From an uncultured Gemmatimonadota bacterium (lineage in GTDB: Bacteria > GCA-2686955), in the NCBI GenBank assembly GCA_964490075.1, contig CAZBBK010000038.1, positions 1 through 52,830 on the forward strand: a stretch of 52,830 nucleotides of DNA, in the 5' to 3' direction. Below the pieces are notes generated by a model. The model worked only from the letters and a program-made list of their open reading frames with translations. It did no database searches and was not told the origin of the DNA. Made by a program: the position numbers and the translations under genes. Shown here piece by piece: positions 501 to 22,174 of this stretch; position 1 is the first letter of the stretch; each line of letters starts with the position of its first letter.

Positions 501-658
501 GCCGCCCCCGCGCCGTCTGGCCCTCTCCCCGCCTCGCCACCGCCGAATCCGGCCCCCGCGCCCCGTCGCGCTTGCTTGCGCACGCTTGCCGAAAGCACAC
601 CGAAGACTCGCGCATGAGCAATGCCGCTCGGTACTCTTGAGTTTTGGATGCCTTGACC

Positions 659-997
659 ATGAGTCGTGGGCGAGCCGCGAACGAAATCGACGAAATCGAG
701 CTAGAGAAGATCGTGAGAGCGATTGTGCGCCTCGTAGAGCCCGAGAAGCTCATTCTCTTCGGGTCCGCGGCGCGCGGCGAAATGACCTCGGATAGCGATC
801 TGGACTTCCTCGTCATCAAGCGCGGCGTCCATCGCCGTCATCTGGCGCGTGAGATTCGCAAGTCCCTGGGGCTCCGGCTCTACCCGATCGACATCCTGGT
901 TGCCCATCCGGAAGATGTGGAGCAGTACGGAGAGTCCCCTTTTCTGGTGTATCGCGCCGCCCTCGAAGAAGGGAGAGTCGTGCATGACGCAGGATGA
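659..997 (+). CDS. Minimal nucleotidyltransferase (MNT) antitoxin-like protein
   Basis: LILFGSAARGEMTSDSDLDFLVI is a Pol-beta NTase GS...DxD motif; ~112 aa. Confidence 0.9.
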   Translation: MSRGRAANEIDEIELEKIVRAIVRLVEPEKLILFGSAARGEMTSDSDLDFLVIKRGVHRRHLAREIRKSLGLRLYPIDILVAHPEDVEQYGESPFLVYRAALEEGRVVHDAG

Positions 998-1072: not shown

Positions 1073-1074
1073 CG

Positions 1075-2086: not shown

Positions 2087-5000
2087 ATGGAAGATGTGGA
2101 GCAATCCGCCGCGGAGGCGGTCGAGACCATTACCCGCTGCTGGAAGGAGGCGTTCGAAAACGACGCCCTGTCTTCTGAGAACAGCCCACGTTTCAAACGC
2201 TGGGGGGAGCAGCGCACGACCCACCTGCCGGCCACCCTGCGGATCATCAGCGCCCGCCTCTCGCGCCCCGCGGAGCCCCATCCCGGCCGCCTGATCCTCT
2301 GCATCGGACTGAGCGAGGAGCAGCTCGCTCTCTCGGTAGCCCTGCACGCCCGGCTGGCCGGCGACCTGAGCGTGGTGCCGGTCGGACCGCCCGAGACCTG
2401 GGTGAAGGTCCGCGACGAACTTCGCGAGCTGCTGGCGATCCTCGAGACGGAAGTCCGCTGGGAAGCCGCGATCCACACTTCGCGCGCCGACCCGGCCGAG
2501 GCATTCCGTGCGGTGCTCGGCGCGCTGCGCGAGACCCCCGCCTGGGTCGACACGACCGGTGGGCAGAAGCCGATGTCGAACGGCGCCGCTTTCGCCGCCA
2601 GCTACTTCGGCGCACCCACCGGCTACCTGGGATTCGACGATTACTCGATTCTCCATCGCCGCCCGCTGCCCTGGACCGCGCGCTACGCCTGGCCTTCCCA
2701 GCCCGACGGCGCCTTCGCGCTCGAGCATCGCCGGGCGGTGCTGCGCGCCTACGAGCGCAAGGACTTCGCCAGCGCCAATGCCTTGCTGGAGCAGGCGCTC
2801 CGCTCGGCCAGGCAAAGCGGCTACCTCGATCAGCGCGACGTCGAGCGGCTGGAGAAGGGGCGCGAGCTGATCGAGAGCGCGCGACTCTGGATGAGCGCCC
2901 AGTACCACCGGCTCGGCGTCGATGCGGCCCTGCGGGACTGGTTCGACGCTCAACTGCAATCAGCACCGCAAAGGGACGACGGCGAGTCGTTGGGCGACGC
3001 GCTGAGCGCCCAGCCGAATGTCGCGGTCCCCTATATGGCCGACGAGTACTGGCGAATCGGCCTCCTGCTCGACCTGGGGCAGCAGCGCGAGGCCCTGATC
3101 GCTCTGGCGGGCCTCGCCGAGCTGGCCGGCAACACCGCGTTGAAGATGGTGGCGGGACGAGTGCGGGTCACGTCGATCAGGAGCAACGGTGGCTGGTTCA
3201 GCCCCTCTCGCGCGGTCCTTCCTCCCCATCGCATCCCGCCCGGCACCCTCAGCAAGAAGATGCGGCTTCTGCGAAGAGGCGAATGTACCTGGTCGGCGAA
3301 GCTCCACGAATCGGAGCTCCGCGCGGGTCTGGATCCGACGCTGTCCGTGCCAGAGCCACCGTGGCGCCAGGCCACTCTGAGGCTCACCCTCGCCAACCCC
3401 CCGCTAGGCTGCGACAACGATTGCTGGAGTCGCTCCTTCGCCACGCGGCGCGACGACGACGGATGGAGATGGGTCGACGAACGTCACATGCTCGTCCACT
3501 CACGCGTCCCCTTGCTCGAACCATCTCTGGTCGGCACACCTTTCAAGCGAATCGTGCCCCGGTTGATCGAAGTCTGCTACCGACTCTGGAAAGGCACAGC
3601 CTTGGAGATCGAATCGGCCGGGCGCGACGACTGGTTGACCTGGCGACAGGAGCTCGGCCGCGACCAACGCCTGGCCTGGTTCCAACCCAACGAGCTGAGC
3701 GGAATCCTGGAGATCTCAAGAGCCCGCGCAGGGAACGCAACCCCAATGACCACCCCGAACCCCACCCACCTGGTAGTCACCGACGTGCCGGGCATCCAGA
3801 GCTACCTGATGGCGTCGGTGCGGCTGCGCGAGATTCAGGGCGCCAGCTCGCTGATCTCGGCTCACGACGAGGAGGCGGCCACGCTCGCCGCCGAGCACGG
3901 GGGATTCGTGGTCTACGCCGCGGGCGGTGCCTGCCTGACCCTCTTCCCCTCGAAGGACCATGCGCAGCGCTTCACGCGCGAATTGGAGACCGCGCTGCTC
4001 GACGCCACCCTCACCGCCCGCTTCGCGGCCAGCGACCCGATCGACCTCGAGCAGGCCGGCGGATTCGATCCCGCCCACGCGCTTGCCCGCGCCTCTCTGG
4101 AACACACCAAGCGCTCCGCCGGCGCCTCCTGCGAGCTGCTCACCATGCCGCTGGCCCGGCGCTGCGCCTCCTGCGGCATCGAACCGGCGTCGGAGCGCGT
4201 CGAGCGCGGCGACGAGCACCGCTGGCTGGGTCTGGCCTGCAAGGCCAAGCACGACGCGCGCCGGCGGAGCAGCATCGAGCTGCTGAAGAGCGATCCCGAA
4301 GACGACTCCTGGGCCTGGCTGCAAGAACGTCACGCCCCCGATGATTTCGCCGAGCTGGTCGCTCCCGGCGGCGACCTGGGGATCGTCGTCGCCGACGTCG
4401 ACGGCGCCGGAGCGCGCCTGACCTCCCTGAAGAGCCAGACCGACATCGGCACCTTCTCGAAAGAGCTCTCCAAAGCGGTCCAGCACGCCCTGGCGACCGC
4501 CCTGCGCACGGCCTGCGACAGCGTGCGCGGGAAGGTCGAGGAGAAGAACGCCAAGCTCCCGGTCGAGGTCCTCTTCGCCGGTGGCGACGACCTGCTCCTC
4601 GCCTGCCGCCACGACCTCGCCCTGCCGATCTGCAAGACCCTCTCGGAGACCTTCCACCCGGCCTCCCAATCCCTCCCCGGCGGCCGCCTCGGCATGTCGA
4701 GCGCCGCCGTCATCGTCCGCCCCTCCTTCCCCTTCCGCGCCGGCCACGACCTGGCCAAGCGGCTGCTCGGCCACGCCAAGGACGTCGCCCGAACCAAGGG
4801 CTGGCCCGCCGGAGCGGTCGACTTCGCCGTCGTGACCGAGGCCTCGGCCGACGCCGACCGCCTGCTGGCCGACCGCGAGCACGCGGGCGGCACCGATCGC
4901 CTGGCGCTCACCGGACGCCCCTACCAGGTCGACGGCGTCAACGCCGAAAGATCACTGACCCGGTTCCAGGTCGCCTGCGGACACCTTTCCGGCGAATTCC

Positions 5001-5296
5001 CGCGCGGCAAGCTGGTCGCCCTGCGCTCGCTCGGCAGCGCCAGCGCGCTCGGCCTGGGTCCCGCCACCGATCTCCCCGCCGCGCTGGACGAGATCGACCA
5101 CCGGCTGTCCGAATGGCGCGCCCAGATCCACCGCTCGCGCGACCACGCCGCGGCATGGAAGAAGGCCATGGAAGAGCTGAACGCCGGCGACGGCCTGGTC
5201 CGCCCCACCGACAACGGTGAGGGCGACGGATGGACCCCGGCCCCCGATCTCGCCGACGGCATCGAGCTCTGGGGATTCCGGGAGGAGACGCGATGA
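2087..5296 (+). CDS. cas10: CARF + HEPN-like effector in frame with type III-D Cas10 (HD-less; Cas10 part from ATG 3746)
   Basis: CARF motifs LILCIGLSEEQLALSV and DTTGGQKPMS (2549-2578); RHMLVH R-x4-H motif (3482-3499); Cas10 motifs DVPGIQSYL..RLREIQGAS, RCASCG, VVADVDGAG and FAGGDD (GGDD 4580-4591). No stop between the two parts. Confidence 0.88.
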   Translation: MEDVEQSAAEAVETITRCWKEAFENDALSSENSPRFKRWGEQRTTHLPATLRIISARLSRPAEPHPGRLILCIGLSEEQLALSVALHARLAGDLSVVPVGPPETWVKVRDELRELLAILETEVRWEAAIHTSRADPAEAFRAVLGALRETPAWVDTTGGQKPMSNGAAFAASYFGAPTGYLGFDDYSILHRRPLPWTARYAWPSQPDGAFALEHRRAVLRAYERKDFASANALLEQALRSARQSGYLDQRDVERLEKGRELIESARLWMSAQYHRLGVDAALRDWFDAQLQSAPQRDDGESLGDALSAQPNVAVPYMADEYWRIGLLLDLGQQREALIALAGLAELAGNTALKMVAGRVRVTSIRSNGGWFSPSRAVLPPHRIPPGTLSKKMRLLRRGECTWSAKLHESELRAGLDPTLSVPEPPWRQATLRLTLANPPLGCDNDCWSRSFATRRDDDGWRWVDERHMLVHSRVPLLEPSLVGTPFKRIVPRLIEVCYRLWKGTALEIESAGRDDWLTWRQELGRDQRLAWFQPNELSGILEISRARAGNATPMTTPNPTHLVVTDVPGIQSYLMASVRLREIQGASSLISAHDEEAATLAAEHGGFVVYAAGGACLTLFPSKDHAQRFTRELETALLDATLTARFAASDPIDLEQAGGFDPAHALARASLEHTKRSAGASCELLTMPLARRCASCGIEPASERVERGDEHRWLGLACKAKHDARRRSSIELLKSDPEDDSWAWLQERHAPDDFAELVAPGGDLGIVVADVDGAGARLTSLKSQTDIGTFSKELSKAVQHALATALRTACDSVRGKVEEKNAKLPVEVLFAGGDDLLLACRHDLALPICKTLSETFHPASQSLPGGRLGMSSAAVIVRPSFPFRAGHDLAKRLLGHAKDVARTKGWPAGAVDFAVVTEASADADRLLADREHAGGTDRLALTGRPYQVDGVNAERSLTRFQVACGHLSGEFPRGKLVALRSLGSASALGLGPATDLPAALDEIDHRLSEWRAQIHRSRDHAAAWKKAMEELNAGDGLVRPTDNGEGDGWTPAPDLADGIELWGFREETR

Positions 5297-7500
5297 GCTG
5301 CCAGATCGAGGTCACCTGGTCGCTGCGCTCCGACTTCCACGTCGGAACCGGGATGGGCCTGGGCAGAACGATCGACGACCTCTGCCTGCGCGACTCCGAG
5401 GGCCGCGCCACCATCCCCGGGTCGACCATCAAGGGACTGGTCCGCGACCAGATGCGCATCCTGCGCGCGGCCCTGCCCGCGGTCCCCGAGGAGAGGATCG
5501 CCGACCTGCTCGGCGCTCCCGGCGGAATCGAAGGCGCGGCCGTCTTCGACGACGCCCGGCCGAGCGCCGCCCCGCGCGACCCCGCCCGGCTGCACGGCCG
5601 CAGCGCCCGCGACCGGTCGACCGGCGGTCCCATGAAGAAGGCCCTCTTCCACTACGAGGACGCCGCCGCCGGCACCTTCGAATCGCGCGTCAGCGCCGCG
5701 CGCGACCTCGCCCCCGGCGAGATCGCCCTGCTGGTCACCGCGCTGCGCAAGATCGATGCCCTCGGCGGCCAGCGCCGCCGCGGCAAGGGGCAGGTCGAAG
5801 TGACCGTCCGCGTGGCCCAGCCCGGCTCCCTGCTCGACCGGCTGGAGCTGCCCGACGACGGCACCAGCGGCGCGGGCCTGATCTACCGCCGAATCATGCA
5901 GAAGATCGAGCGCAGCGCCCCCGACCCCTGGGATCGCCCGGAGCCCCCACCGCTCCCCGGCCCACGCCCGATCCCCGGCGCCCCCGACCGCGTCACCCTG
6001 CTGGTCGTCGCCGAAGCCGCCGGCCCCCTCGCCCCGCTGTGGCGCCCGCAGGCCGGCAACGTCATCGACTCGCTCGATCATATCCCCGGCACCAGCCTGC
6101 GCGGCGCCCTGGCGCGCCGCCTCATCCACAGCGGCTGGCACCCATCCAGCGACCCCTTCCAGCGCGCCTTCGTGCGCGACCAGATCTGCTTCGGCCCCCT
6201 CTACCCCGCTCGCGCCTGGCGCGGCGAACACCGCAGCGCCCCCTTCCCCGCCCCGCGCTCCCTGATCACCTGCAGCCGCCTGCCGGGACTCCGCGACGGC
6301 GTCGCCCGCGCCGACCAGGTCCACGGCCTGCGCGACATGCTGCGCGCCCGAAACCCCCTGGCCACCTGCCACTGCGGCGCCCGCATGGCCGGCTGGCCGG
6401 GATGGCTGCAGGTGCGCCGCGAAACCACCGGCCACGCCCTGCAGGACTGCCGCCCGGAGCGCCACACCATTCAGCGCACCGCCATCGACCCCGACACCCA
6501 GCGCGGCGACGATGGCACTCTGCGCGCCACCCGCCGCCTGCCGCGCCGCACCTGGATGGTCGGCTACATCTGGGCCCGTCGCGACCTCGCCGAGATGCTG
6601 CTCGCCACCCTCGGCGACGACCCGATCGACCTGCGCGTCGGCAAGGGCCGGACCCGCGGTCAGGGCGCCCTCTGGGCCCGCGTCTTGCGCCAGGAGCCGC
6701 GCCACGAAAGCTACCCCCTGCTCCTCCCCGCCGGCCACGACCCCGAGCGCCCGAGCGCCGGCGACAAGGGCTTCGCGCTCACCCTCTACAGCGACCTGGT
6801 GGCCGTCGACCGCCTGCTCCGCCCCCTCGCCACCCTCGACCCGCCCGCCCTCTGGGACCTGCTCGGCGGCGACGCCAAGAGCCCCGTCCCCTTCAGCGCC
6901 GGCGCCGCCTTCTCCGGGCAGCGCGAAGTGGCCGGCTTCAACGGCGTCCCCGGCCTGCCGCGCAGCCCCGACACCGTCATCGAGGCCGGCAGCACCTGGT
7001 GGTTCGACTGGCTCCCCGGCACCGAGCCGAAGGCCGTCGAGAACGCCCGCAGGCTGCTCGCCAAGGCCCAGCGCCACGGCCTGGGCCTGCGCCGCGGCGA
7101 AGGCTTCGGCCGCGTCATCGTCGACCACCCCCTGCACGCCGCCGCCGTCGACCAGACCCGACCGGGCGCCTCCCACCAGGTGAGCATCGACTGCGACACC
7201 GACCTCGTCGACGCCGACAGCCGTCTCGAACCCGTCGCCGCCGGCGCCGACAGGCGCCCCGCCCCCCACAGCCCGGTCGCGGTCGACATCAAAGCGTCGG
7301 AGCGCGAGGGATTCGTGCGGCTCCTCCTGGAGCTCGCCCAGGAGCCCGACCCGAGCGCCCGGATCGACCAGATCCTCGCCTCCGATCGCGGCGGCTCCGG
7401 CGGCGCCAAGGCGGTCGCCAAGGCCCTGAAGAAGCTCAGGAGCGCCGGCCCCGAGAAGCTCCTGGCCACCGCCGCCCGCCTGGCATCGCGGGAGAGCTGA
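5293..7500 (+). CDS. csx10: Cas7-Cas5 (Csx10) RAMP fusion, possibly with a C-terminal Cas11-like helical segment
   Basis: ATG 5293 overlaps the cas10 stop. First RAMP: FHVGTG, IPGSTIKG, LGGQRRRGKG. Second: HIPGTSLRGA, RVGKGRTRGQG, GLGLRRGEGFG. The short helical tail as Cas11 is inference only. Confidence 0.85.
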   Translation: MSCQIEVTWSLRSDFHVGTGMGLGRTIDDLCLRDSEGRATIPGSTIKGLVRDQMRILRAALPAVPEERIADLLGAPGGIEGAAVFDDARPSAAPRDPARLHGRSARDRSTGGPMKKALFHYEDAAAGTFESRVSAARDLAPGEIALLVTALRKIDALGGQRRRGKGQVEVTVRVAQPGSLLDRLELPDDGTSGAGLIYRRIMQKIERSAPDPWDRPEPPPLPGPRPIPGAPDRVTLLVVAEAAGPLAPLWRPQAGNVIDSLDHIPGTSLRGALARRLIHSGWHPSSDPFQRAFVRDQICFGPLYPARAWRGEHRSAPFPAPRSLITCSRLPGLRDGVARADQVHGLRDMLRARNPLATCHCGARMAGWPGWLQVRRETTGHALQDCRPERHTIQRTAIDPDTQRGDDGTLRATRRLPRRTWMVGYIWARRDLAEMLLATLGDDPIDLRVGKGRTRGQGALWARVLRQEPRHESYPLLLPAGHDPERPSAGDKGFALTLYSDLVAVDRLLRPLATLDPPALWDLLGGDAKSPVPFSAGAAFSGQREVAGFNGVPGLPRSPDTVIEAGSTWWFDWLPGTEPKAVENARRLLAKAQRHGLGLRRGEGFGRVIVDHPLHAAAVDQTRPGASHQVSIDCDTDLVDADSRLEPVAAGADRRPAPHSPVAVDIKASEREGFVRLLLELAQEPDPSARIDQILASDRGGSGGAKAVAKALKKLRSAGPEKLLATAARLASRES

Positions 7501-7503
7501 GCC

Positions 7504-8892
7504 ATGAACGAGTATCGCTACCTGCTCTCCTGCACCCTCAGCACCCCGGCGCGCATCGGCACCGGCGCCGCCAACCTCTTCACCGACGCCACCCTCCGCC
7601 GCAGCGCCGCCGGCCGACCGGTCGTTCCCGGCACCGGCCTGGCCGGCGCCTTGCGCGCCATCGCCGAGCGGGTCGCCCCCGACGACCCACCCTGCCGAAT
7701 CGCCACCGGTCCCGCTCGGCGCGCCTCCACCCCCTGCCCCTGCCTGGTCTGCGAGCTCTTCGGCAACGTTCGCCCCACCGGCGAGACCGCCCGCGCCTCC
7801 CGCGTCACCGTCCTCGACGCACCGCTCACCCGAGCGCGCACCCGCATCATCGACGGCGTCAGCCTCGACCGCGACCGCGGATCGGCGGCCGACCGGCTGC
7901 GTTTCGACGCCGAGGAGCTGCTGCCCGGCGCCTCCTTCCAGATCGAGCTCCGCGCCCGCGACCTCGACGAGGAGCAGAGCGCCCTGCTGGAGACAGTCCT
8001 CGCGACCGCCAAAGACCAGGGACTGATCCTTGGAGCCCGGGCAGCCGCCGGAATGGGCCGCGTCACCCTCGACGCGATCGAGCGCCGCGGCCGCGACCTG
8101 TCGAACATCGAGCACCTGGTCGCCGCCGCCCGCCACCCCTCTCGCCACTTCTCCGCCTGGCCGCAAGGGGCGGGAGCCGGTCCGCGCACGCACCAGCCCC
8201 TCCCCGCCCCCGCCGTCGTCGCCTTCACCCTCACCTCCCCCGCCCACAGCACCTTCCTGGTCGCCGACCCCACCGAAGCCACCCGCGCCGGCCGGGACCG
8301 CGCCCCCCGCGGCGGCCCGACCACCCCCGAGCTCCCCGGCAGCTCCCTGCGCGGCGCCCTGCGCTCCGCCGCCGAACGGATCCTGCGCACCCTCGGCACC
8401 GGCGCCGCTTGCACCGCCCGCACCCGCAAGGGCCGCTGCGGCCTGCATCGTGGTCGCTGCCTGGCCTGCGAGCTCTTCGGCGACGTCAGCGCCGCATCGC
8501 CGCTGCGCGTCGTCGTCGAAACGCCGGACCGGCACCGCGCCTCTCCCGCCCCCTTCGACCACGTCGCCCTCGACCGCTTCACCGGCGGAGCGCGCGACGC
8601 TCTCAAGTTCGACGCCCTGGCCGCGCGCGGCGCCTCCTTCCAAGTCACCCTCGAGCTGCGCGCGAAACAGGCGCGGCGCCCCTGGATGGCCGGTCTCCTG
8701 CTCCTGGCCCTGGCCGATCTGCACCACGGCCTGGCGACAGTCGGCCACGGCGGCGCCAAGGGTCACGGTTGGATGAGGGTCGATGGCCGACCGCGAATCG
8801 ACGGCATCGACGCGGGGCACCAGCAATGTGTCGACGCGCTCTGGAAGCGCCTCGGTCCGGCGTCCGCGCGGCAGCAGGAGGAGACACAATGA
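7504..8892 (+). CDS. cas7: Double Cas7 (Csm3-like x2) RAMP protein
   Basis: Two RAMP units: VPGTGLAGALR/CLVCELFG/LGARAAAGMG and LPGSSLRGALR/CLACELFG/VGHGGAKGHG. Confidence 0.9.
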   Translation: MNEYRYLLSCTLSTPARIGTGAANLFTDATLRRSAAGRPVVPGTGLAGALRAIAERVAPDDPPCRIATGPARRASTPCPCLVCELFGNVRPTGETARASRVTVLDAPLTRARTRIIDGVSLDRDRGSAADRLRFDAEELLPGASFQIELRARDLDEEQSALLETVLATAKDQGLILGARAAAGMGRVTLDAIERRGRDLSNIEHLVAAARHPSRHFSAWPQGAGAGPRTHQPLPAPAVVAFTLTSPAHSTFLVADPTEATRAGRDRAPRGGPTTPELPGSSLRGALRSAAERILRTLGTGAACTARTRKGRCGLHRGRCLACELFGDVSAASPLRVVVETPDRHRASPAPFDHVALDRFTGGARDALKFDALAARGASFQVTLELRAKQARRPWMAGLLLLALADLHHGLATVGHGGAKGHGWMRVDGRPRIDGIDAGHQQCVDALWKRLGPASARQQEETQ

Positions 8893-9425
8893 GCTGGAGA
8901 GCGTGGACCTGTGATTTGAAGGACGACCAGCTGAACACGCTGGTGGCAAGCGCGGCCTCCCCCGGCCAGTTCTCGACTGGAGCGGCAATCGGGTTCTTCG
9001 AGGGACCGACGCATTGCATCTTCGACCAGGCCCAGTCGGCTCCCCCATCCCACCAGCTCTGGTCCCAGCGGATCTTCGGCGAGCGGGGCGAGCTGGCGGC
9101 GCGGCGGCTCGACCACGAACGGGAAAGACCCTGGCGCGTGCGCTGGATCAGCACCAGCGAGCCCCCGAAGGCAGAGCACTGGAGCCATCCGGTGGAGCTG
9201 GGCGATCCCGACACCAGCCGGGCGCCCCTCTTCGGACGGGGCACGCCGCGGGGAGAGCTGCGTGAGGACCGATTCCGCGCCGCGTTGCCGGCGGGCGGAG
9301 CGCCGATCGCCGAGGGGACCGAGCTCTTCCTCGAGTGTGCCCGGCACCCCGCTCCGGGGGGCGCGTTGCTGCGTTGGAACAAAGTTGTCGCGTCGCATCA
9401 AGAGAAGGTTGGGAGCAATGGCTAG
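8889..9425 (+). CDS. csx19: Csx19-like type III-D subunit
   Basis: ATG 8889 overlaps the upstream TGA. ~178 aa, in the canonical position between double Cas7 and Cas7-insert; RIFGERGEL and LFG motifs. Confidence 0.7.
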   Translation: MSWRAWTCDLKDDQLNTLVASAASPGQFSTGAAIGFFEGPTHCIFDQAQSAPPSHQLWSQRIFGERGELAARRLDHERERPWRVRWISTSEPPKAEHWSHPVELGDPDTSRAPLFGRGTPRGELREDRFRAALPAGGAPIAEGTELFLECARHPAPGGALLRWNKVVASHQEKVGSNG

Positions 9426-13718: not shown

Positions 13719-14800
13719 CACTCTGGATCGCCGAGCCCCGAGACACGCTCGTGGTTCGTGACGGACGCCGTGAGTTCTCGGGCATGGGTCCGATGCGCTC
13801 GGTCGCCCTTCCCTGGCCGTCGACCACGGCCGGTTTCGTTCGCACCCGCGTCGGGCGCGACGAATCCGGGCGCTTTCGGTCGACCGTGGCCGAGGCGCGG
13901 GCGATCGAGGTGACCGGCGCCTGGCTGGCGCGTCTCGATGGCGAGGGCGAGGTCGATCAGTGGCTCTTTCCCGCCCCCCGCGACGCGCTCTGGGGCGCGG
14001 CGAAGAGCGGCACCCAGATGCGCCATCGTCTCGCGCCGGAGCCGGTTCCCGGCGGCATCACGACCAGCTGCAGGCTGCCGATGCTGCCTCGGCCACGCAC
14101 CGAGCTCCCGGCCGGAAAACCGACGCCGGGCCCGGCGTTCTGGACCGGCGCGGAGCTGGCCGACTGGCTCGCCGATCCCACGGATGCCGCGGCGGTCGGC
14201 AGCTTCGGTCACGACGCCCTGCACGACGAAACCCGCATTCACGTCTCGATCGAGGCGCAAACCAGGACGGCAAAGGAAGGCGCTCTCTTCGGTGAGGTCG
14301 GCCTGCGCTTCGTGACACCCGAACGCCGTCGTCTGGCGGTCGGCTTCCGCTGTGATCACGCCGGCCTGCGCGGCGGCGCGGGAACGCTGGGGGGAGAGCG
14401 GCGTGTATCGTATCTAAGACAGACTTCCAGGCGCCTGCCGGCACTGCCCCAAGCGTTCCCCGGAGATCTGGTCCGCGTCGTCCTGCTGACCCCGGCCATC
14501 TTCGCGGATGGCTACCTGCCGGCGAGCGGAGCGCTCTCCGGAACCGCGGTGGTCGCCGCCTGTGTCGGCCGCCCCGAGCCGATCTCCGGCTGGTCCTTCG
14601 AGACGATCCGGGACGCCGAGGGGAAGCGCGTGCAGAAGGGGCCGAAGCCGGTGCGCTGGATGGCCCCGGCCGGCAGCGTCTACTGGGTGAAGCCCGCCGA
14701 TCCCGTATCCTGGGCGGCCCGGCATCACCTCCAATGCGTCTCCGACGACACACAGGACCGCAAGGACGGTTTCGGCCTCGCGGCCGCGGGAGTGGGCTGA
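13715..14800 (+). CDS. cmr3: Cmr3 (Cas5 group)
   Basis: EPRDTLVVRDGR, LPWPSTTAG, TLGGERR, LLTPAIF, PAGSVYW, DGFG; GTG overlaps the cmr2 stop. Confidence 0.93.
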   Translation: MTLWIAEPRDTLVVRDGRREFSGMGPMRSVALPWPSTTAGFVRTRVGRDESGRFRSTVAEARAIEVTGAWLARLDGEGEVDQWLFPAPRDALWGAAKSGTQMRHRLAPEPVPGGITTSCRLPMLPRPRTELPAGKPTPGPAFWTGAELADWLADPTDAAAVGSFGHDALHDETRIHVSIEAQTRTAKEGALFGEVGLRFVTPERRRLAVGFRCDHAGLRGGAGTLGGERRVSYLRQTSRRLPALPQAFPGDLVRVVLLTPAIFADGYLPASGALSGTAVVAACVGRPEPISGWSFETIRDAEGKRVQKGPKPVRWMAPAGSVYWVKPADPVSWAARHHLQCVSDDTQDRKDGFGLAAAGVG

Positions 14801-15963
14801 TGCGGCGGACCAACGAGACACCGCGGAAGATGATCCGGCGCGACGGTCGGCCGTTGAAGCGACGCTTCGAAGTGATCTCTCCGGTGCATGACGGGGGCGT
14901 GGCCGCGGCAGGCGAGGCCGATCCCGTCACACCGGTGAGAACAGCGGCGATCCGTGGCCAGCTACGCTTCTGGTGGCGAGCCACCTGCGGCGTGGAGCGC
15001 GAAAGTGTCGCGGATATGCTGGCCGCGGAGACGCGGATCTGGGGCGCCGCCAGCAGCCCCGGCGCGGTCGCGCTCGCGATCACGGAACAGCCGGTCGCCA
15101 AGACGATGGAGCTGCCGGGCATCGGCGAGCCTCTCGGCTACGGCGGTTTCGGGTTGCGCACCTCGGCCGGGAAGCTCGGGATGTTCGAGGGAGAGTGCCA
15201 GCTGGTGCTGAGTGGCCCCGGGCTGGCGGACGCGGGAATCCGCGCGGAGGTGGAACGGGCGCTCGACGCGTGGTTGACTTTCGGAGGCATCGGCGGCCGC
15301 ACCCGGCGGGGTTTTGGCGCCGTCGCGTCGGCCGAGGGAGAATGCGATCCGGAAGAGACACTGAGGCGCCTGCGGCCGGGCTCGACGCTGCCCGACACGC
15401 CGAGCCTGAGTGGAGCACGGCTGGTGCTGGCGCCGGGCCGCAGCAGCACCGGGCGGGCGGCGCAGCAGAAGGCTCTGAAGCTGATGATGGACTTCCGCCA
15501 GAAGCCGGGATTGGCGCGCCGGGAAGGCGGGAAGCGCCCGGGGCGGAGCTTCTGGCCGGAAGCCGACGCCATCCGCCGCATCGCCGATAACCACAAGAAA
15601 GGACATGAGCCGGAGCACCCGGTCCACCAGAAAGCCCCCCGCGCCGAGTTCGGGCTTCCGCTCATCATCCAGTTCAAAGACAAGGACCGAGGAGATCCAC
15701 GGCAGCACGAGATCAAGCCGAAGGACTCGGAGCGGCTGGCGTCGCCGATTCTGCTTCGCCCGATCCGCATCAAGAAGAACAGCTACCGGGCGGCGGCCCT
15801 GCTCCTGGACGGCATCCGCGCCCGCGACCTCGCCCTGGAGACGAAGGGGGCGGGCCTCGAGGCCGGGCTCACGGAAGCCGAAGCCGCCCAGATCCGCCCT
15901 CTCGCCGGCAACGCCGATCCCCTGGACGCTTTCCTTGACTTCTTCTCACGTGGAGGCACTTGA
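14800..15963 (+). CDS. cmr1: Cmr1
   Basis: AIRGQLRFWWRA, FGGIGGRTRRGFG, PRAEFGLP, RLASPILLRP. Confidence 0.93.
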   Translation: MRRTNETPRKMIRRDGRPLKRRFEVISPVHDGGVAAAGEADPVTPVRTAAIRGQLRFWWRATCGVERESVADMLAAETRIWGAASSPGAVALAITEQPVAKTMELPGIGEPLGYGGFGLRTSAGKLGMFEGECQLVLSGPGLADAGIRAEVERALDAWLTFGGIGGRTRRGFGAVASAEGECDPEETLRRLRPGSTLPDTPSLSGARLVLAPGRSSTGRAAQQKALKLMMDFRQKPGLARREGGKRPGRSFWPEADAIRRIADNHKKGHEPEHPVHQKAPRAEFGLPLIIQFKDKDRGDPRQHEIKPKDSERLASPILLRPIRIKKNSYRAAALLLDGIRARDLALETKGAGLEAGLTEAEAAQIRPLAGNADPLDAFLDFFSRGGT

Positions 15964-16841
15964 TGAATCTCCGATTGATGTTCGTTCACGCCCTCTCGCC
16001 GCTGCACGCCGGAACCGGGCAGTCGGTGGGGGCCATCGATCTCGCCATCGCCAGAGATCGCGCCACCTCGTTCCCGTACCTGCCGGGCAGCTCGATCAAG
16101 GGATCGCTGCGGGATCGCGCCGGCGGCGCCAACGACGAAGTCATGGTCTTCGGTCCCCCTACGCAGAAGGCCCATGAGCACGCCGGCGCGCTGATCGTCG
16201 GCGACGCCAACCTGCTCCTTCTTCCGGTCCGGTCGGTGCGCGGAACCTACGCGTGGGCGACCTCGCCGTACCTGCTAGCTCGCTACGCTCGCGACGCCGT
16301 GGAGGCTGGCCTGAGCCCGCCCCAGGTGCCGAAGGTCGAGTCGATCGACCGGGGCCTCGTCGCCGGCGGCACTTCGTTGGCGGACAATCAAAATCGGATC
16401 ATCCTCGAAGATCTCGATTTCAAGGTCACGGCGGGCGACCAGGCAAATCAGTGGGCGGAGCACATCGCGAAGCTGCTCTTCCCCGGAAAAGCAGGAAAAG
16501 ACGATCCGTGGCCGGAGCTCTTGAAGAAACGCTTCTGCATCCTGCACGACGACACCATGGTCTTCCTGGCCCGTCATGCGACCGATGTGGTGGCGCGGAT
16601 CTCCATCGAAAACGACACCAAGACGGTCAAGAAGGGTGGGCTCTGGTATGAGGAGAGCCTGCCGGTCGAGACCATCCTGGTGGCGCTGATGGCAGCACAG
16701 GAGATCCCCGCGTCGAATGCAACCGCTACCGACGTGCTGAGGGCACTCGAGGGCTACAGCCGGGAGCCGCTGCAGCTGGGCGGAAACGCCACGGTTGGCC
16801 GGGGGCGCTGCCGCCTGGTGCTGGCGCGGGGGAACAACTGA
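15963..16841 (+). CDS. cmr4: Cmr4
   Basis: HALSPLHAGTGQSVGAIDLAIARD, PGSSIKG, GLWYEESLP, QLGGNATVGRG. Confidence 0.96.
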   Translation: MNLRLMFVHALSPLHAGTGQSVGAIDLAIARDRATSFPYLPGSSIKGSLRDRAGGANDEVMVFGPPTQKAHEHAGALIVGDANLLLLPVRSVRGTYAWATSPYLLARYARDAVEAGLSPPQVPKVESIDRGLVAGGTSLADNQNRIILEDLDFKVTAGDQANQWAEHIAKLLFPGKAGKDDPWPELLKKRFCILHDDTMVFLARHATDVVARISIENDTKTVKKGGLWYEESLPVETILVALMAAQEIPASNATATDVLRALEGYSREPLQLGGNATVGRGRCRLVLARGNN

Positions 16842-17215
16842 TGGCTACACGGCAACAACGATGGTCCAGCAAGGCGCTCGCCTGCGTCGAGGAGCGCCAG
16901 GCGGAGGGGCAAGCCAAGGACTTCGCGATCTCCAAGTACAAGACGCGCTGTCTCTCCACCCCCTCTCTCGTGCAACAGGCCGGCGTGGTTCAGGCGCTCG
17001 CCTTCATCATCTCGCGGGACCAAACCGGGCGCGACTTCGCCGACGATCTGGCCCAGACCTACGGCTTGAAGGACCGCGACGAGCTACTCAGGAAGGCCCA
17101 GAATGGTGGTCTCGGCGAGTACATGACACTGTCGGCCGACCTCATCTCGGTGGCGACATGGTTCCGGCGCTTCGCGCAATCGGAGCTCACGGCGGTCGAA
17201 GAGGACGACTCGTGA
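16841..17215 (+). CDS. cmr5: Cmr5 (small subunit)
   Basis: 124 aa helical protein between cmr4 and cmr6; TRQQRW, PSLVQQAGVVQALAF, WFRRFA. Confidence 0.9.
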   Translation: MATRQQRWSSKALACVEERQAEGQAKDFAISKYKTRCLSTPSLVQQAGVVQALAFIISRDQTGRDFADDLAQTYGLKDRDELLRKAQNGGLGEYMTLSADLISVATWFRRFAQSELTAVEEDDS

Positions 17216-18564
17216 GATCCCGCCGAAGCGCCCTGGGTGGCGTCAAACCCACGGCCGATACGCACCGCGGCCTGTGGCTCGACCGTTTCCTGACCGAGCA
17301 GAGAAACGCCGATGGCTCCTCATCCGACGACACCAAGAGCGCGCGCCAGAACCTGATCGAGAGCTGCGAGGACCACCCCGCGCCCGACGGATATGGCCAG
17401 GCGCACCGGCGCTGGAAGAGCTCTTTCGGCGACGACGCAACGCTCGCTCTGGCGACCGCGCGGGGCCGCATCGCTCTCGGCCTCGGCCAGGCCACGCCCC
17501 TGGAGGTGGGGCTGACGCTCGACCACACCTGGGGAGTGCCGAAGCTGCCCGGCACGGCCCTCAAAGGCCTCGCGGCCGCCGCCGCCCGCCATCTGCTCGG
17601 CTCTCCCGAGTGGGACGTCGGCGGCGAAAGCTACGACACCCTCTTCGGGACCACCGAACAGGCCGGAGTCGTGGACTTCATGGATGCCTGGTGGGAGCCG
17701 TCGGATGATGGGGCGAGCACCCCCATCCACCTCGACGTCATGACGGTTCATCACGGCGACTACTACGCCCGCGCCGGGAAGACCGGCGAGACGCCGCCGC
17801 CGCTCGACACCGACAAGCCCAATCCGGTCTCTTTCGCCAGCGTCAGCGGGAGCTACCTCGTGGTGGTTCGGGGACCGGCCGAATGGCGCGAGGCGGCGCT
17901 CGCCCTGCTCTGGATCGGCCTGAAAGAGCTCGGGATCGGAGCCAAGACCAACGCCGGCTACGGCCGAATGAGCCTCGATGCGAGCAACTCCTTGATCGAC
18001 GGGCTTCGCACGCAAGAGGAGCAGGCCGAAAAGCAGCGCAAGGAAGAGGAAGAAGAGCGGCGCAAACAGATCGAGGAGCAGCTCGCGGAGAAGGCCAAGA
18101 AGGCAGAAGCCGACGCCCGGGAGAGGCAGCGCATACGGGATCTTGCCAAGCTCGGGCACGAAAACTGCGGACACCTGATGCCCAGGCTCCTGGAGACCGA
18201 ATCCGAGGAGCTCAGGAAGAAGGTGCTGCTACACGCCCGGGAGCTCGGACTCGAGTTCGTGAGGGGCCGCGAAGAGAAGGGCCTGCCCTGGGCCAAGGCA
18301 GTGATGGATGCATGGCCTGAGGAGGAACGTCCCAAACCGGCCCCCGTGGATCAGGAGCTGGCGAAAGTCCAATCGGCGGGAGAAGACGCCGAAGAGCTTC
18401 GCCGGCTCAAACAGCAATGCATGGAGGCGGAGGGCTGGTCGCCGGATGCCCGGGCCGCCCTGCTGGGCGCGCTCAAGAAGAAGTTCGGAGGCCGGCGGGT
18501 GAATCCCAAGAACAAGAGGCACTATACCGAGTTCAACGACTGGTACAAGAGCCAGAAGCGGTGA
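17212..18564 (+). CDS. cmr6: Cmr6 with long charged C-terminal extension
   Basis: EVGLTLDHTWGVPKLPGTALKG, DVMTVHH..YY, GIGAKTNAGYG, followed by a ~190-aa E/K/R-rich tail. Confidence 0.92.
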   Translation: MRSRRSALGGVKPTADTHRGLWLDRFLTEQRNADGSSSDDTKSARQNLIESCEDHPAPDGYGQAHRRWKSSFGDDATLALATARGRIALGLGQATPLEVGLTLDHTWGVPKLPGTALKGLAAAAARHLLGSPEWDVGGESYDTLFGTTEQAGVVDFMDAWWEPSDDGASTPIHLDVMTVHHGDYYARAGKTGETPPPLDTDKPNPVSFASVSGSYLVVVRGPAEWREAALALLWIGLKELGIGAKTNAGYGRMSLDASNSLIDGLRTQEEQAEKQRKEEEEERRKQIEEQLAEKAKKAEADARERQRIRDLAKLGHENCGHLMPRLLETESEELRKKVLLHARELGLEFVRGREEKGLPWAKAVMDAWPEEERPKPAPVDQELAKVQSAGEDAEELRRLKQQCMEAEGWSPDARAALLGALKKKFGGRRVNPKNKRHYTEFNDWYKSQKR

Positions 18565-18653
18565 AGCTCGGCCTCGACGGGCCGGCTTGAGCAGCGCCCA
18601 ATCGCACCCACTCCCCCACACGCACACCACGCTCGAGCTACCCTGCCCCCAGG

Positions 18654-20675
18654 ATGCCCCGCCCCACCCCACCCGTCGACCCCGCCGACCTCGACCTCTA
18701 CGCCCTGCTGGATCGTGTGCTGCACGCGGTTAGCACGCCGACGAGGCTCGAGATGCTGCGCGCCGGCCAAAAGCTCGGTCTGCTGATCGAGGTCCTGCTC
18801 GGGCATCCGCCGATCCGCGGTCGCAGCCGCCCGCGCGACTTCCCTTTCGCCCCCCACCAGGACGAAGCCCTCGAGATCGCGCGCCGACTGGCGGGCCGGG
18901 AGGTCTCGAGCGACAACATCAGGCGGGGGGGGCCGAGCTACAACCTCTACGATTGGCTCGTCGCCTGCGCCCTGCTCGGCTGTGGCGACGACGACGAGAA
19001 GCGCTGCCAAGACCGGATCTTCTATCTGCTGCAGCACTTGGAGCAGACACTCGGACTGCGGCGGAGCCTGTTTCGGGAACAGATCTGGGATCTCCTCGGG
19101 CTGTTCGACGCCCCGAACAGCCGCGATCGGGGAGAGGTGTTCACCGAGACCACCAAGACCGCGGTGGTGGCGGCGCTCCTGGCGCGCCATGCCGGCTTCG
19201 ACCAGAGCAGCGATCAGCTGATCGACGAGCTCTGGGATGACAAGAAAGCACGCCGCTTCGTCCGCAATCAGCGCGACCGCCTGCGCGCGACCCGGCGTTG
19301 GCGGATCGACCTCAAGGCGGCCGGAGTCCAGGATTTCCTCGACGCATGTCGCCTGGTCTTCATTCGTCGCGGCGCCAGCACTTGGTCCGCGCAGACTCTG
19401 GCGCTGCTGCGCGACGACATCGCCTGGGGGCCGCTCGGGCACTGGCCCTTCAAGACCCGCCCCCGGCTCCTGATCGACTCCAACTCCGTGGTCAGCTTCT
19501 GGACCGAAAGCGCGGTCGCCGGCGAGGAGCTGGCGGCGGGAGTGCGCGATGCACTGGACCGAGCGCTCCAGGGATCAGAGGGCAGCGCGGTGGGGCTCGA
19601 CAAGCGATATCCACTCCTGATGCCGTACCGGCGGGAAGCCTGGGAGATGTACGAGACACATCTCGGGGCCCCCGAGCGTTGCCTTGCGGAGTTGGGCACG
19701 GTGTTTCCTGACGTGAAAGTCCAGGCCCTTCCGATGTCGTTGGAACGACTCGCGATGCAGCGAGCTCGCTACCAACCGGAATACGAGGGCCACGACAACA
19801 GCTGGCGGACGGTCCGCTGCTTCGGGGGTACCGCAAGGTCGGTCGAGAGCGGTTCGACGCCGGACTGCAAGGGAAGACCGGGCGATCCAGCCCTGGCGTC
19901 TAGAATTCCCCCCTGGTACAAACGCAATCCGAGCTCCGACGAAAGCTACGGATGGGCGGCCTTCGCCTACTCCCTGGTCGGCCGGATCTACCGCCGAACC
20001 GCCGAGCGGGGGCTCGCGAGCATCGCTTTCCCCGACCGCAAAGACGGGCGCCTGCGCGACCTCAACGCCGCGCGCCGGCTGCGGGCAATCGACCGCAAGC
20101 TGGGCGGTGAGGGGCGCCTGGCTCTTTTGAAGCTGGACGGCGATCGCGTCGGAAAGGGCTTCGTAGAAAGACCGATGCTGCGGGCGCCGGCGCTCAGTGT
20201 CGGCATCGAGTCGGTGATGCTGGAGCGAGTGCAACGAGCAGTCCACACGATCTGCGCGGAGCATCGCGCGGATCTGGAAGGAGGGCTGCCGCTCGACCTG
20301 ATCTACTTCGGCGGCGACGACCTGGAGCTGCGCGTTCCTGCGCTCCTGGTAGAGACTCTGCTCGAGGATTTCGCGACTCCACTGCCCACCGATCGCACGG
20401 CGCTCGGAGAGCTCTCGATCACCTGGTCGGCAGCCGCGATCGAGCTCGAATGCGCAACGGAACCCGGCGTACCGGCCGAGGAGATCGTGGCGGCGAGGAG
20501 AATCGGCGAGCTGCTCGAGCTGGCGAAGGCGCGCAGCCCTCTACGGGGCCGGCGGCAGGATGTGACGCCAACGATCGACGGATTGACCGGCGTGGTGGAA
20601 TGGTCGCCACGCCAACATCATGAGCGCCTCTTCGGAATGCGCGCTCGGATCGGAAAGGCGACGGCCGAACCATGA
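18654..20675 (+). CDS. Divergent Cas10-like GGDD polymerase/cyclase
   Basis: DLKAAGVQDFL...IRRGAS (Palm1-like), LALLKLDGDRVGKGF and LIYFGGDD (GGDD 20310-20321; Palm2), ITWSAAA. The N-terminal ~210 aa is unassigned. Confidence 0.75.
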   Translation: MPRPTPPVDPADLDLYALLDRVLHAVSTPTRLEMLRAGQKLGLLIEVLLGHPPIRGRSRPRDFPFAPHQDEALEIARRLAGREVSSDNIRRGGPSYNLYDWLVACALLGCGDDDEKRCQDRIFYLLQHLEQTLGLRRSLFREQIWDLLGLFDAPNSRDRGEVFTETTKTAVVAALLARHAGFDQSSDQLIDELWDDKKARRFVRNQRDRLRATRRWRIDLKAAGVQDFLDACRLVFIRRGASTWSAQTLALLRDDIAWGPLGHWPFKTRPRLLIDSNSVVSFWTESAVAGEELAAGVRDALDRALQGSEGSAVGLDKRYPLLMPYRREAWEMYETHLGAPERCLAELGTVFPDVKVQALPMSLERLAMQRARYQPEYEGHDNSWRTVRCFGGTARSVESGSTPDCKGRPGDPALASRIPPWYKRNPSSDESYGWAAFAYSLVGRIYRRTAERGLASIAFPDRKDGRLRDLNAARRLRAIDRKLGGEGRLALLKLDGDRVGKGFVERPMLRAPALSVGIESVMLERVQRAVHTICAEHRADLEGGLPLDLIYFGGDDLELRVPALLVETLLEDFATPLPTDRTALGELSITWSAAAIELECATEPGVPAEEIVAARRIGELLELAKARSPLRGRRQDVTPTIDGLTGVVEWSPRQHHERLFGMRARIGKATAEP

Positions 20676-22174
20676 AGACCGCAATGATCGTTCTAGCCAG
20701 CGAGCAGCTCTGGCCCAACCTGAGCGGGCTCGTGCACTGGCACGAAAACGAGGGCGGTGTCGACGCCCTGTTCATCTACCACACCGGCGACGAGAGACGA
20801 TCCGAGGCGCCGGCCGGGCGCCTGAAGCGGCTCTGTAGAGCGGTCTACCCGGAGATCGAGGTCATCCTGCCCGAGAAGCCGTGTGGCATCGTACCGAGCG
20901 CGGTTCGGGCGCAGATTGGGAGCTGGCGGACCGGGCGTGGCGACGAGTGGCGGTGGGTCATCAACGCGACCGGAGGTGTCAAGTTGATGTTCGAGGGCGC
21001 CATGGCGTTCTGCTCGGAGGAGCGTTGCCAGGTGATCTATCGGGAGCTTTCCGGGCAGTGGTTCGAGCTGACGCGGACCACAGAGTTAGGGCATGTCGAG
21101 GCGGTCGAGATCGAGATCGATCCTGGAGTGACTGACGACGTCGAGGTCGACAGACTGATCGAGATGCAGTCCGACGCGCCGGCAGGGATGCGGTGGAATA
21201 CGGCCAGGCCACGCCGGCTGCCGGTGGATCGCATCACCGAGACGGGCATAAGCAACGATTGGAACTGGGAGAAAGCGTTCCGGTCGGCCGGTATCGATCC
21301 CAGGGGGCGCCAGGGCGGACTGCTCTTCGAGGAGTACGTGGCTGCGGCATTGCGCCTGCTCGACGTGACCAACTGCAAGATCAACGCGGAGCTGCAGGGT
21401 GCGGTCGGCCAGGGCGCCCAGGCCGTCAGCGAGACCGACATCGTCGCCAACGCCGGCGGCCGCTTGCTGATGATCGACTGCAAGCTGCGCGAGGCCGATC
21501 AGGCCGGCGACACTCCATTGACCGATCAGATCAGCCGTGCGGCGAACTTGCAGCGTAGAATGGGCGGCTTGAGCGCGGCCTGTGCCCTGGTGCGGCCCAA
21601 TCGGGAGTTTAGCGACCTGCACCGCCGCTATGCCGAGAGCGCCAGATTGACGGTCATCGACCGCGGCCAGGCCCCGAGCTTCTTCAGCGCCTTGGCGAAG
21701 TTCGTCGGCAGGAGGAACCCCGACGATCTGCCGCCAGAGCTGGCCGACGCGCAGGCCCGCCTGAACCGTGCGCACCGAGAGGGGAAGCTGATCTTCGGAC
21801 GAATGAGCGCGGCCGCGCAGCTCGATCCGAAGCAGGCGAAGCAACTCGAGGAGGATGGGTTCCTGAACCTGATGCGCGCGGCCGATGCGACCATGGCGGA
21901 GCTCGAACAGGACTGGTTCTGCCACTCTTGGCGCGGGCGCTGGCACCTCTACTGGCAACCATCAGCGGCGGTCGATTCCAGCGATCCGCCTCGTGCGGTG
22001 TTGGAGAACATGCTCCGGAAAGAGCTGGGAAGAGCATGGGAGATCGGGGCCGAGCCCTCCAAGAAAGGCGCCTCCTGCTACGCCTCGATCATGCCGCGGC
22101 CAGGCTGCAAGGAGCCCGCTGCCGGAATCCGCCGCTTCCTCGAAAGCCGACGCGGCAAAACGCTCCTCCCCTGA
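20672..22174 (+). CDS. CARF + PD-(D/E)xK nuclease (Card1/Can2, DUF1887-like)
   Basis: CARF: IVLASEQLWPNL, INATGGVKLM. Nuclease: GLLFEEYV...ETDIV...LLMIDCK. ATGA-coupled to the upstream gene. Confidence 0.85.
   Translation: MKTAMIVLASEQLWPNLSGLVHWHENEGGVDALFIYHTGDERRSEAPAGRLKRLCRAVYPEIEVILPEKPCGIVPSAVRAQIGSWRTGRGDEWRWVINATGGVKLMFEGAMAFCSEERCQVIYRELSGQWFELTRTTELGHVEAVEIEIDPGVTDDVEVDRLIEMQSDAPAGMRWNTARPRRLPVDRITETGISNDWNWEKAFRSAGIDPRGRQGGLLFEEYVAAALRLLDVTNCKINAELQGAVGQGAQAVSETDIVANAGGRLLMIDCKLREADQAGDTPLTDQISRAANLQRRMGGLSAACALVRPNREFSDLHRRYAESARLTVIDRGQAPSFFSALAKFVGRRNPDDLPPELADAQARLNRAHREGKLIFGRMSAAAQLDPKQAKQLEEDGFLNLMRAADATMAELEQDWFCHSWRGRWHLYWQPSAAVDSSDPPRAVLENMLRKELGRAWEIGAEPSKKGASCYASIMPRPGCKEPAAGIRRFLESRRGKTLLP

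Follow-up and report, generated by a model that had tools for sequence, protein, structure and literature searches.

In this study, we analysed the whole of a 52,830-nt contig (C38, referred to below as the window) from an uncultured marine Gemmatimonadota bacterium (CAZBBK010000038.1), and our results support the presence of two complete type III interference modules, one III-Dv-like and one of the Cmr (III-B) type, which lie head to tail in a single translationally coupled string of genes behind one CRISPR array on the same strand. The first gene of the string is an in-frame fusion of a CARF-HEPN ribonuclease module to the III-Dv-like Cas10. We consider it rather probable that the whole forms one co-transcribed, translationally coupled operon in which the III-Dv-like and Cmr complexes sense RNA, with intact cyclase sites and without an HD DNase, and operate with a fused and a Can2-like effector. 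An earlier reading of this DNA, made from its letters and its open reading frames (ORFs) and called here the sequence-only reading, had described a hybrid locus of this kind; its observation is confirmed, and its interpretation is partly supported.

The string consists of 13 plus-strand genes (2087-22174) downstream of the array, which lies at the contig edge. The gene set was defined by third-position guanine plus cytosine (G+C) content, in a window of about 68% G+C, together with inspection of starts and stops, and all 13 reading frames are open, with the ends given below. Mutually consistent profile searches in Pfam, NCBIfam and PADLOC name every gene but a 178-amino acid (aa) ORF at 8889-9425. 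From 2087 to 18564 the measured junctions are, in order, -4, +3, -4, -8, -1, -4, -1, -1, -1 and -4 nt (plus for a gap, minus for an overlap), which bears out the earlier statement that these genes overlap or abut; the next gene, encoding a third GGDD protein, is preceded by a gap of 89 nt, and the last gene by an overlap of 4 nt. The TGATG reported at 11806-11810 is exact: its TGA is the stop codon of the gene for a Cas7 with an insertion and its ATG is the start of cmr2, so that the III-Dv-like and Cmr modules share a 1-nt stop/start overlap at 11808, with GGAGG just upstream. Shine-Dalgarno-like purine-rich stretches precede most of the starts. A simple scan of the gene string found no sigma-70-like promoter site (0.9 expected) and no excess of terminator-like sites (six, against 8.9 expected from shuffles), none of them at the junction of the two modules. 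In positions 1-23000, no Rfam family rose above threshold.

Misassembly, which the sequence-only reading had named as a way in which it could fail, is spoken against by an 18,330-nt Logan contig from one run that matches window positions 299-18628 with one mismatch and no gaps. This contig is a second assembly, maybe of the source sample, independent in method and not in sample. Across four runs of one study no indels are listed, the sole variant listed being at 6905, and the exact 1069-aa product of the first gene is on record on four contigs. At the DNA level, then, this population truly carries the two junctions, that within the fusion and that between the III-Dv and Cmr modules. Short read-layout "joints" of 20-22 nt per side were disregarded, their source being unrelated G+C-rich contigs.

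Where the sequence-only reading saw a plain cas10, PADLOC matches and alignments reveal a CARF-HEPN-Cas10 fusion of 1069 aa in one open frame (2087-5296). Its N-terminal half (2087..3736, plus strand) is a full-length Csx1/Csm6-type module: residues 69-353 match PADLOC CARF1 CARF_HEPN (E 5.7e-19) and Csx1/Csm6 (E 2.1e-14), the CARF motif TGGQKPM lies at residues 157-163, and the HEPN motif R466-x4-H471 sits within a W...R-H-x-L-V-H-x-R block. The module therefore has the CARF domain and the HEPN R-x4-6-H motif of Csx1/Csm6 effectors, and it is not free-standing, since it shares one open frame with Cas10d. Alignment A2 sets the module beside 12 stand-alone homologues (about 460-595 aa); TGGxKPM is invariant among the 13 sequences, and R466 and H471 are present in at least 90% of them. 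The C-terminal half (3737..5296, plus strand) is an HD-less Cas10d, with PADLOC matches at residues 560-981 to Cas10 (E 2.3e-58) and Cas10d (E 5e-42); the sole PDB sequence match of the gene product is 8s9t_C, the III-Dv Cas10. Aligned with 18 stand-alone Cas10d proteins (A3), this half shows invariant zinc-finger cysteines, an invariant VADVDG aspartate and an invariant GGDD (context FAGGDDLL), and Met551 of the fusion aligns with Met1 of stand-alone Cas10d.

The fusion appears to be both rare and derived. A HMMER search of 1.84 billion representative proteins with the fusion as query gave 2206 matches at E<=1e-3, of which the best 150 were examined; none of the 149 other proteins is a full fusion. 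Most of them (125/149) match the Cas10 half only (query residues ~539-1065), being mostly about 480-620 aa long and up to 44% identical, and the other 24 match the N-terminal half only (query ~3-546) and measure 319-699 aa, most of them 460-699. The longest of the 149, P0118 (862 aa), is too short for both halves and, among ten of the best matches that were also scanned with PADLOC, shows no CARF match. P0049 (654 aa) carries a CARF fragment of 75-90 residues in frame before Cas10 and lacks HEPN; judged from its sequence, the fragment looks like decay of an upstream gene. A protein of a different kind, P0125 (740 aa), is a Cas10d-Cas7 fusion by PADLOC. Relatives were also sought in genomes and metagenomes, with two loci found in each, so that synteny statistics are thin. 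In both related metagenomic loci a separate CARF-HEPN gene (556 or 645 aa) lies 23-30 nt upstream of a separate cas10d (481-539 aa), and in one of them (L030) the downstream genes are those of the first module of the window. The separate genes of the relatives indicate that the fusion is the derived state, and its origin would be best explained by loss of a stop codon, after which translation would continue across the short spacer to give a linker of about 10 residues. Word-index searches for homologues of the first gene and of the 178-aa ORF returned only the query itself or a copy 99% identical to it, and with the first gene as query no homologue was found in four other genomes of the same GTDB phylum.

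The same findings have to be weighed against the view that the fusion is a recent stop-codon loss, neutral or harmful, in which the long product is inactive or unstable, Cas10 is made from Met551 and the locus amounts to two ordinary modules. The scarcity of the fusion among the best matches, the separate genes 23-30 nt apart in relatives, a linker of only about 10 residues and a Met551 that coincides with a native start all agree with such an accident, and the fragment in P0049 suggests that run-through at this junction recurs as decay. However, the fused half is of full length with its CARF and HEPN motifs intact, third-position G+C is high throughout the frame of the gene, and a working arrangement of the kind has a printed precedent in the NucC-Cas10 proteins of type III-D (PMC11229360). 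Taken together, we regard an accidental, inactive fusion as possible and somewhat doubtful.

The genes that follow the fusion complete a III-Dv-like module. A 735-aa Cas7-Cas5(Csx10) fusion (5293..7500, plus strand) matches PADLOC Cas7_IIId at residues 8-78 and Cas5_IIId at 253-618; its sole PDB match, to 8s9t_A (Cas7-Cas5-Cas11), is limited to residues 5-55, and in the 117-residue helical-looking tail after the Cas5 match, which has no Pfam match, a Cas11 domain could not be confirmed. The next protein is a double Cas7 (Cas7-2x) of 462 aa (7504..8892, plus strand) with two stretches matching Pfam RAMPs (E 5.6e-36), a NCBIfam Csx7 score of 121.4 bits (cut-off 108) and a match to PADLOC Cas7_IIId (E 7.4e-67). 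It has two RAMP stretches and not three, and two Cas7 domains in one protein, as against three, are what separates III-Dv from III-D2 according to PMC13294483. The 178-aa ORF (8889..9425, plus strand) occupies the csx19 slot. Searches of Pfam, NCBIfam, PADLOC and the PDB gave no match for it, and it is homologous to a 187-aa ORF in the same slot of L030 (BLASTP E 3e-6), though a profile of the two sequences also failed to match the PDB; its AF2 model (predicted local distance difference test, pLDDT, 29.8) was unusable. We take this ORF to be a predicted conserved small subunit in the csx19 position whose identity as Csx19 could not be confirmed. The module ends with a 796-aa Cas7 with a large insertion (TIGR03986; 9418..11808, plus strand; NCBIfam 269.8 bits, cut-off 161.35; PADLOC Csm3/Cas7_IIId E 3.1e-75). 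Four genes identified by profiles and a small ORF in the csx19 slot therefore stand in the order described for III-Dv (PMC11026444), as the sequence-only reading had proposed, whereas its csx19 and Cas11 labels could not be verified.

The second module is, as had been stated, a full Cmr set, with Cmr1 to Cmr6 all identified and ordered cmr2-3-1-4-5-6 on the plus strand. Cmr2 (Cas10b; 11808..13718, 636 aa; NCBIfam 159.9 bits, cut-off 79.4) has the GGDD context YAGGDDVL, and its residues 3-620 cover positions 2-516 of the 519 in the PADLOC model of HD-less Cas10; it starts directly at the Cmr2_N region and thus has no HD domain. It is followed by Cmr3 (13715..14800; Pfam Cas_Cmr3 192 bits, PADLOC E 4.5e-62), Cmr1 (14800..15963; NCBIfam 41.4 bits, cut-off 28.65, PADLOC E 4.5e-20), Cmr4 (15963..16841; NCBIfam 220.2 bits, cut-off 87), Cmr5, the Cas11 of this module (16841..17215; PADLOC E 9.4e-20), and Cmr6 (17212..18564; NCBIfam 102.4 bits, cut-off 51.1). 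Cmr6 has a C-terminal extension, the PADLOC matches stopping at residue 254 of 450. This lysine- and glutamate-rich extension of about 195 residues (17980-18564) has no family match, and the Cmr6 encoded by a second Cmr locus of the genome, on contig C50, is also long (440 aa).

The claim of three GGDD proteins and two CARF modules was upheld by motifs and PADLOC, and all three Cas10-type proteins have, besides GGDD, the upstream metal-binding aspartate. The reported absence of an HD motif held as well: no HD family was found in the three proteins in Pfam at E<=0.01, and none is listed for them by NCBIfam or PADLOC.

The CRISPR array (34..328, plus strand) has four identical 37-nt repeats (GTTCC...ATTGAGAC) starting at 34, 119, 201 and 292, separated by spacers of 48, 45 and 54 nt. 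It is the only array in the window, and it runs off the first base of the contig. The repeat RNA folds into a hairpin with a 3' tail of 7-8 nt ending in AUUGAGAC; a hairpin with a short tail is the usual shape of a Cas6 substrate, and the fold fixes transcription of the array on the plus strand. The repeat does not occur on other contigs of the genome with up to six mismatches, matches to its 12-mers elsewhere in the genome are scattered single sites, and it has no match in Rfam. A repeat-like stretch upstream of the first gene (1888-1917) was rejected: its score of 28 was reached by 17/200 shuffles, and other chunks of the window reach 30.

The genome, which is 95% complete in 136 contigs, was also searched for the processing and adaptation genes. 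The sequence-only reading found no cas6, cas1 or cas2 in the window; in a genome-wide search of Cas1 and Cas6 families, in which Cas2 was not included, no match indeed lies on C38, although this absence is an assembly effect, because the contig breaks inside the array, and Cas6 and a reverse transcriptase-Cas1 (RT-Cas1) are encoded on C50. Cas1 family matches occur on five other contigs, and the sole Cas6 match is on C50, where the first genes encode Cas6, a CorA-like protein, Csx1 (411 aa), a Can2-like nuclease and RT-Cas1. The second III-B locus (863-18200 of C50) has cmr1-2-3-4-(5)-6 on the opposite strand, and its Cmr proteins are 30-45% identical to those of the window. The CorA effector suggests, by analogy, signalling through S-adenosylmethionine-AMP (SAM-AMP) in that other locus. 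The genome holds five Cas10-palm genes in all, as well as I-B, I-E and I-G loci. Candidates for the contig upstream of the array are C50 (1-425) and C94 (L031, 14199-14623), which have a 425-nt element in common and terminate at an identical base of it; the copies are 93% identical, lie in opposite orientation and are rich in palindromes around GTTGGAGAATCGA, a motif that the rest of the genome lacks. In C94 the element follows an RtcR/PspF-like activator gene together with BREX-like helicase and kinase genes, and it may be a regulatory or leader region beside an unassembled repeat. The motif was also tried as a link between C50 and the window and rejected: the window has three matches with up to two mismatches, a number equalled by 10/100 shuffles, and there is thus no enrichment. 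Neither the repeat, its 12-mers nor GTTGGAGAATCGA linked C50 or C94 to the window array. As another candidate fusion in the III-D lineage, besides P0125, one open frame of locus L029 (4386-6935) has a Cas6 match (residues 221-508) and after it a ParB-like region (597-765), which could be an over-long ORF call.

These data bear on the proposal that the two modules are merely packed together in a defence island and are independent, each with its own array or Cas6 and sharing neither CRISPR RNAs (crRNAs) nor signalling. Codon-position G+C is unlike between them, the genome has another Cmr module of only 30-45% identity with its own Cas6 and RT-Cas1, and in the complete genome G302 a III-D and a Cmr module stand on one strand 5.5 kb apart. 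Yet in the window the modules are joined by the 1-nt stop/start overlap at 11808 with its GGAGG, no terminator-like site interrupts the junction, and a single array precedes both. We therefore think full independence unlikely.

The third GGDD protein (18654..20675, plus strand; 673 aa) is a stand-alone divergent Cas10-like protein, recognised by weak Cas10 profile matches and in two alignments (A1 and A5). It has an N-terminal helical region of about 210 residues, then palm1-like and palm2 parts, with the palm1-like motif IDLKAAGVQDFL near residue 214; palm2 ends about 30-40 residues before the stop, and the C-terminal Cas11-like domain is absent. There are two close homologues (47% and 42% identity) and, in genome collections, two distant ones (30% and 26%). 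DGD and YFGGDDLE are invariant in this family (A1, A5), the three closest members have in common a strongly conserved N-terminal block, and no HD dipeptide is conserved among the five sequences. With a pLDDT of 54.7, its AF2 model has low to moderate confidence; in Foldseek, all 43 matches of this model at E<=1e-3 are Cas10 chains, over alignments of 484-775 columns with low template-modelling (TM) scores of 0.22-0.40, and the language-model neighbours of the protein are Cas10/Cmr2 clusters. An identity as mCpol was rejected, since Pfam PF18182 gave no match and the fold matches run over full Cas10 chains. On these models the protein has the look of a Cas10 relative with two palms that lacks the C-terminal helical domain, and not that of a minimal mCpol.

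The surroundings of the two distant relatives differ from those of an effector complex. One lies between Mokosh-like MkoA/MkoB genes and a gene whose 759-aa product has a Csx29-like CHAT protease domain (E 2e-12; L027, 30-8486). The other follows a ThiF/E1-like enzyme, with two NYN-like genes also upstream and, some 6 kb away, an RT-Cas1 and an array of 25 repeats (L028, 1-12085). No Cas7 or Cas5 gene is in view beside either. This context speaks against the third GGDD protein being a complex subunit and for a stand-alone family, and the protein is accordingly assigned, from sequence and context, to a small putative family of stand-alone Cas10-like proteins outside effector-complex operons. 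That it is an alternative large subunit swapping into the Cmr or III-Dv complex, as its position 89 nt after cmr6 on the same strand and its full-Cas10 fold and language-model neighbours might suggest, is improbable in view of the missing Cas11-like domain, the relatives without Cas7 or Cas5 genes and its translational coupling to a CARF nuclease gene and not to the cmr genes.

That nuclease, encoded by the last gene of the string (20672..22174, plus strand; 500 aa), is a Can2/Card1-like protein with a C-terminal extension. The PADLOC match (CARF4 CARF_PDDEXK, E 5.1e-15) gives it the CARF domain and PD-(D/E)xK nuclease that characterize Can2/Card1, and its Pfam Card1_endonuc score of 21.1 bits is below the cut-off of 26.4. 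The 673-aa protein and the Can2-like nuclease would most likely make up a cyclase-effector (sensor-effector) module of their own, working with the same kind of messenger. Members of the stand-alone Cas10-like family adjoin varied candidate effectors, namely a CARF nuclease, a CHAT protease and an E1-like enzyme, and the family may be an unexplored branch of nucleotide signalling.

Returning to the integrated operon as a whole, its mode of action can be proposed as follows. Cas6 encoded elsewhere in the genome would cut the repeat transcripts and leave an 8-nt AUUGAGAC handle, and both complexes would load crRNAs from the array. Binding of a foreign transcript would switch on the Cas10 palms to produce cyclic oligoadenylate, most likely cyclic tetra-adenylate (cA4). 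This signal would activate two operon-encoded CARF nucleases, the Can2/Card1-like DNase/RNase and the Csx1/Csm6-type HEPN RNase, the latter covalently joined to the III-Dv Cas10 through stop-codon loss between genes that are separate in relatives. The proposal of the sequence-only reading that immunity here is mainly driven by second messengers is reasonable given the intact cyclase motifs, the lack of an HD nuclease and the presence of CARF effectors. Its further suggestion of a different messenger for each effector finds no support, as both CARF classes are given as cA4-activated in PMC11229360, where the Csx1 and Can1-2 classes are defined in this way and co-occurring effectors are stated usually to share one activator. 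SAM-AMP signalling in III-B and III-D2 is reported to accompany CorA (PMC13294483), and no CorA was found among the scanned genes of the window.

Several points weigh against so integrated an operon. According to PMC11229360, CARF-HEPN enzymes act as dimers, and PMC11026444 describes the III-Dv complex as having no repeated subunits; a dimeric CARF-HEPN enzyme does not match one Cas10 per complex, so the fused RNase may be inactive, or may depend on pairing with another complex or with an unattached partner. Another possibility is that translation from the internal Met551 yields Cas10 by itself. Only one population is known to carry the fusion, with four samples, all from a single study and one perhaps the source, and Csx19 and Cas11 of the first module are unconfirmed. 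No RNA run bearing the locus is among the public runs listed, which touches co-transcription and expression, and the Cas6 gene on C50 has no link to the array contig. Third-position G+C is about 0.93-0.98 in 5.4-8.4 kb and 0.7-0.88 in 9.3-18.5 kb; this contrast in sequence fits two units with different histories set side by side, and it is silent on their cooperation.

We would go further only tentatively. It is possible that the III-Dv complex bears its own messenger-gated RNase, so that the signal is made and read on the same particle, that two target-bound complexes might pair through their CARF-HEPN parts as a threshold, and that the previously undescribed 673-aa cyclase, together with the Can2-like nuclease, serves as a sensor that needs no crRNA or amplifies the same messenger pool.

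Other genes and repeats of the window lie at the borders of this locus or beyond it. An MNT-type, antitoxin-like nucleotidyltransferase gene (644..997, plus strand; Pfam NTP_transf_2 E 2.3e-11, NCBIfam MntA-like below cut-off) stands between the array and the cas genes, and its membership in the system is uncertain. The HEPN toxin partner expected beside it seems decayed (849-1380): an ORF from about 984 begins HEPN-helix-like (AAWMLRARSNLAIA), and no family match was found in any frame. Right after the CRISPR operon, a thymidylate (dTMP) kinase-like gene (Pfam Thymidylate_kin E 2e-16) and a radical SAM gene overlap, the latter having MoaA-like matches and a weak viperin match (NF038283, E 0.0011); together (22684-24641) these could be a prokaryotic viperin-type defence pair. 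At 43003-43150 there are three 46-nt direct repeats at a spacing of 51 nt, 60-76% identical and not CRISPR-like.

Type III immunity normally keeps the Cas10 signal maker apart from freely diffusing signal readers. In this locus both the CARF-HEPN-Cas10 fusion and the family of stand-alone Cas10-like cyclases merit experiment. The fusion poses the testable question of whether signalling occurs in cis or between paired complexes, and tools for detecting RNA would have in it a compact point of departure. The III-Dv and Cmr operons, which abut, are moreover a natural system for asking whether two complexes share guides and a messenger pool.

With regard to how frequent the layout is, a sample of 401 genomes from 350 genera contained 21, including the source, with a TIGR03986 gene above cut-off. 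In 18 of the 20 others the contig also carries the module's own Cas10, whose reading frame measures 475-603 aa, and in none of the 20 was a second Cas10 palm found within 3 kb downstream, although some contigs end soon after the gene. One of them, G302, a complete genome of 2.4 Mb, has a Cmr module 5.5 kb downstream of its III-D-type module on the same strand. That region of G302 (C1:1494000-1533800) in fact holds three Cas10-containing modules on one strand over about 27 kb, with the III-D-type module in the middle and the third Cas10 upstream. The sequence-only reading had allowed that the layout might already be common; in this sample it is not, with no abutting case among the 20 and one at 5.5 kb. 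Adjacency of III-D and III-B is rare and not unique, and it is the 1-nt coupling and the fusion that distinguish the present locus. In the literature searched for Cas10-CARF fusions no title or abstract reports a CARF-HEPN-Cas10 fusion, though supplements could list cases.

For the first module, the closest known system is the III-Dv of Synechocystis sp. PCC 6803 (8s9t; PMC11026444), which is described with the same succession of cas10, cas7-cas5 fusion, cas7-2x, small ORF and cas7-insertion, a likewise HD-less Cas10 with GGDD, and 37-nt repeats that start with GTTC and end in GAAAC/GAGAC. In Synechocystis the CARF-HEPN accessory genes (Csm6, Csx1) are placed upstream of the operon (PMC11026444), whereas here such a gene and cas10 form one in-frame fusion. 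Neither the small ORF nor the putative Cas11 tail of the window matches its counterpart by sequence, and in place of trailing cas6 and adaptation genes a Cmr operon abuts. For the fusion, the nearest parallel is the rare NucC-Cas10 of type III-D, reported for example in Virgibacillus pantothenticus (PMC11229360), in which, too, an effector nuclease activated by cyclic oligoadenylate is joined to the N-terminus of Cas10. The effector fused here is a CARF-HEPN RNase, of a dimer family, and not the hexameric NucC, and no stand-alone copy of the same effector lies beside the gene, the 411-aa Csx1 on C50 being a different protein. An HD domain is reported in only 3% of III-D Cas10 proteins (PMC11229360).

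Hybrid CRISPR-Cas loci are a class recognised by CRISPRCasTyper (bioRxiv 10.1101/2020.05.15.097824), and like those described there the window combines interference modules of two subtypes, which presumably share one array, and lacks adaptation genes of its own, with the difference that a 1-nt stop/start overlap connects its modules. The largest type III survey (PMC11229360) is stated to have left out type III hybrids in which cas10 occurs more than once, which implies that such loci are known but uncounted. The Can2-like protein resembles Can2/Card1 in having a CARF domain (NATGGVK) followed by a PD-(D/E)xK-type nuclease region (IDCK), and differs in its length (500 aa), in an additional tail of some 150 residues, in its Pfam Card1 nuclease score below the cut-off and in being paired, through a 4-nt gene overlap, with a stand-alone Cas10-like cyclase. 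This cyclase shares with mCpol a Cas10-type palm with GGDD that lies outside an effector-complex operon and beside a nucleotide-sensing effector, and is set apart from it by its 673 aa, two palm-like regions, whole-Cas10 fold matches and lack of a Pfam mCpol match. The locus as a whole unites known kinds, a hybrid type III locus and an effector-Cas10 fusion.

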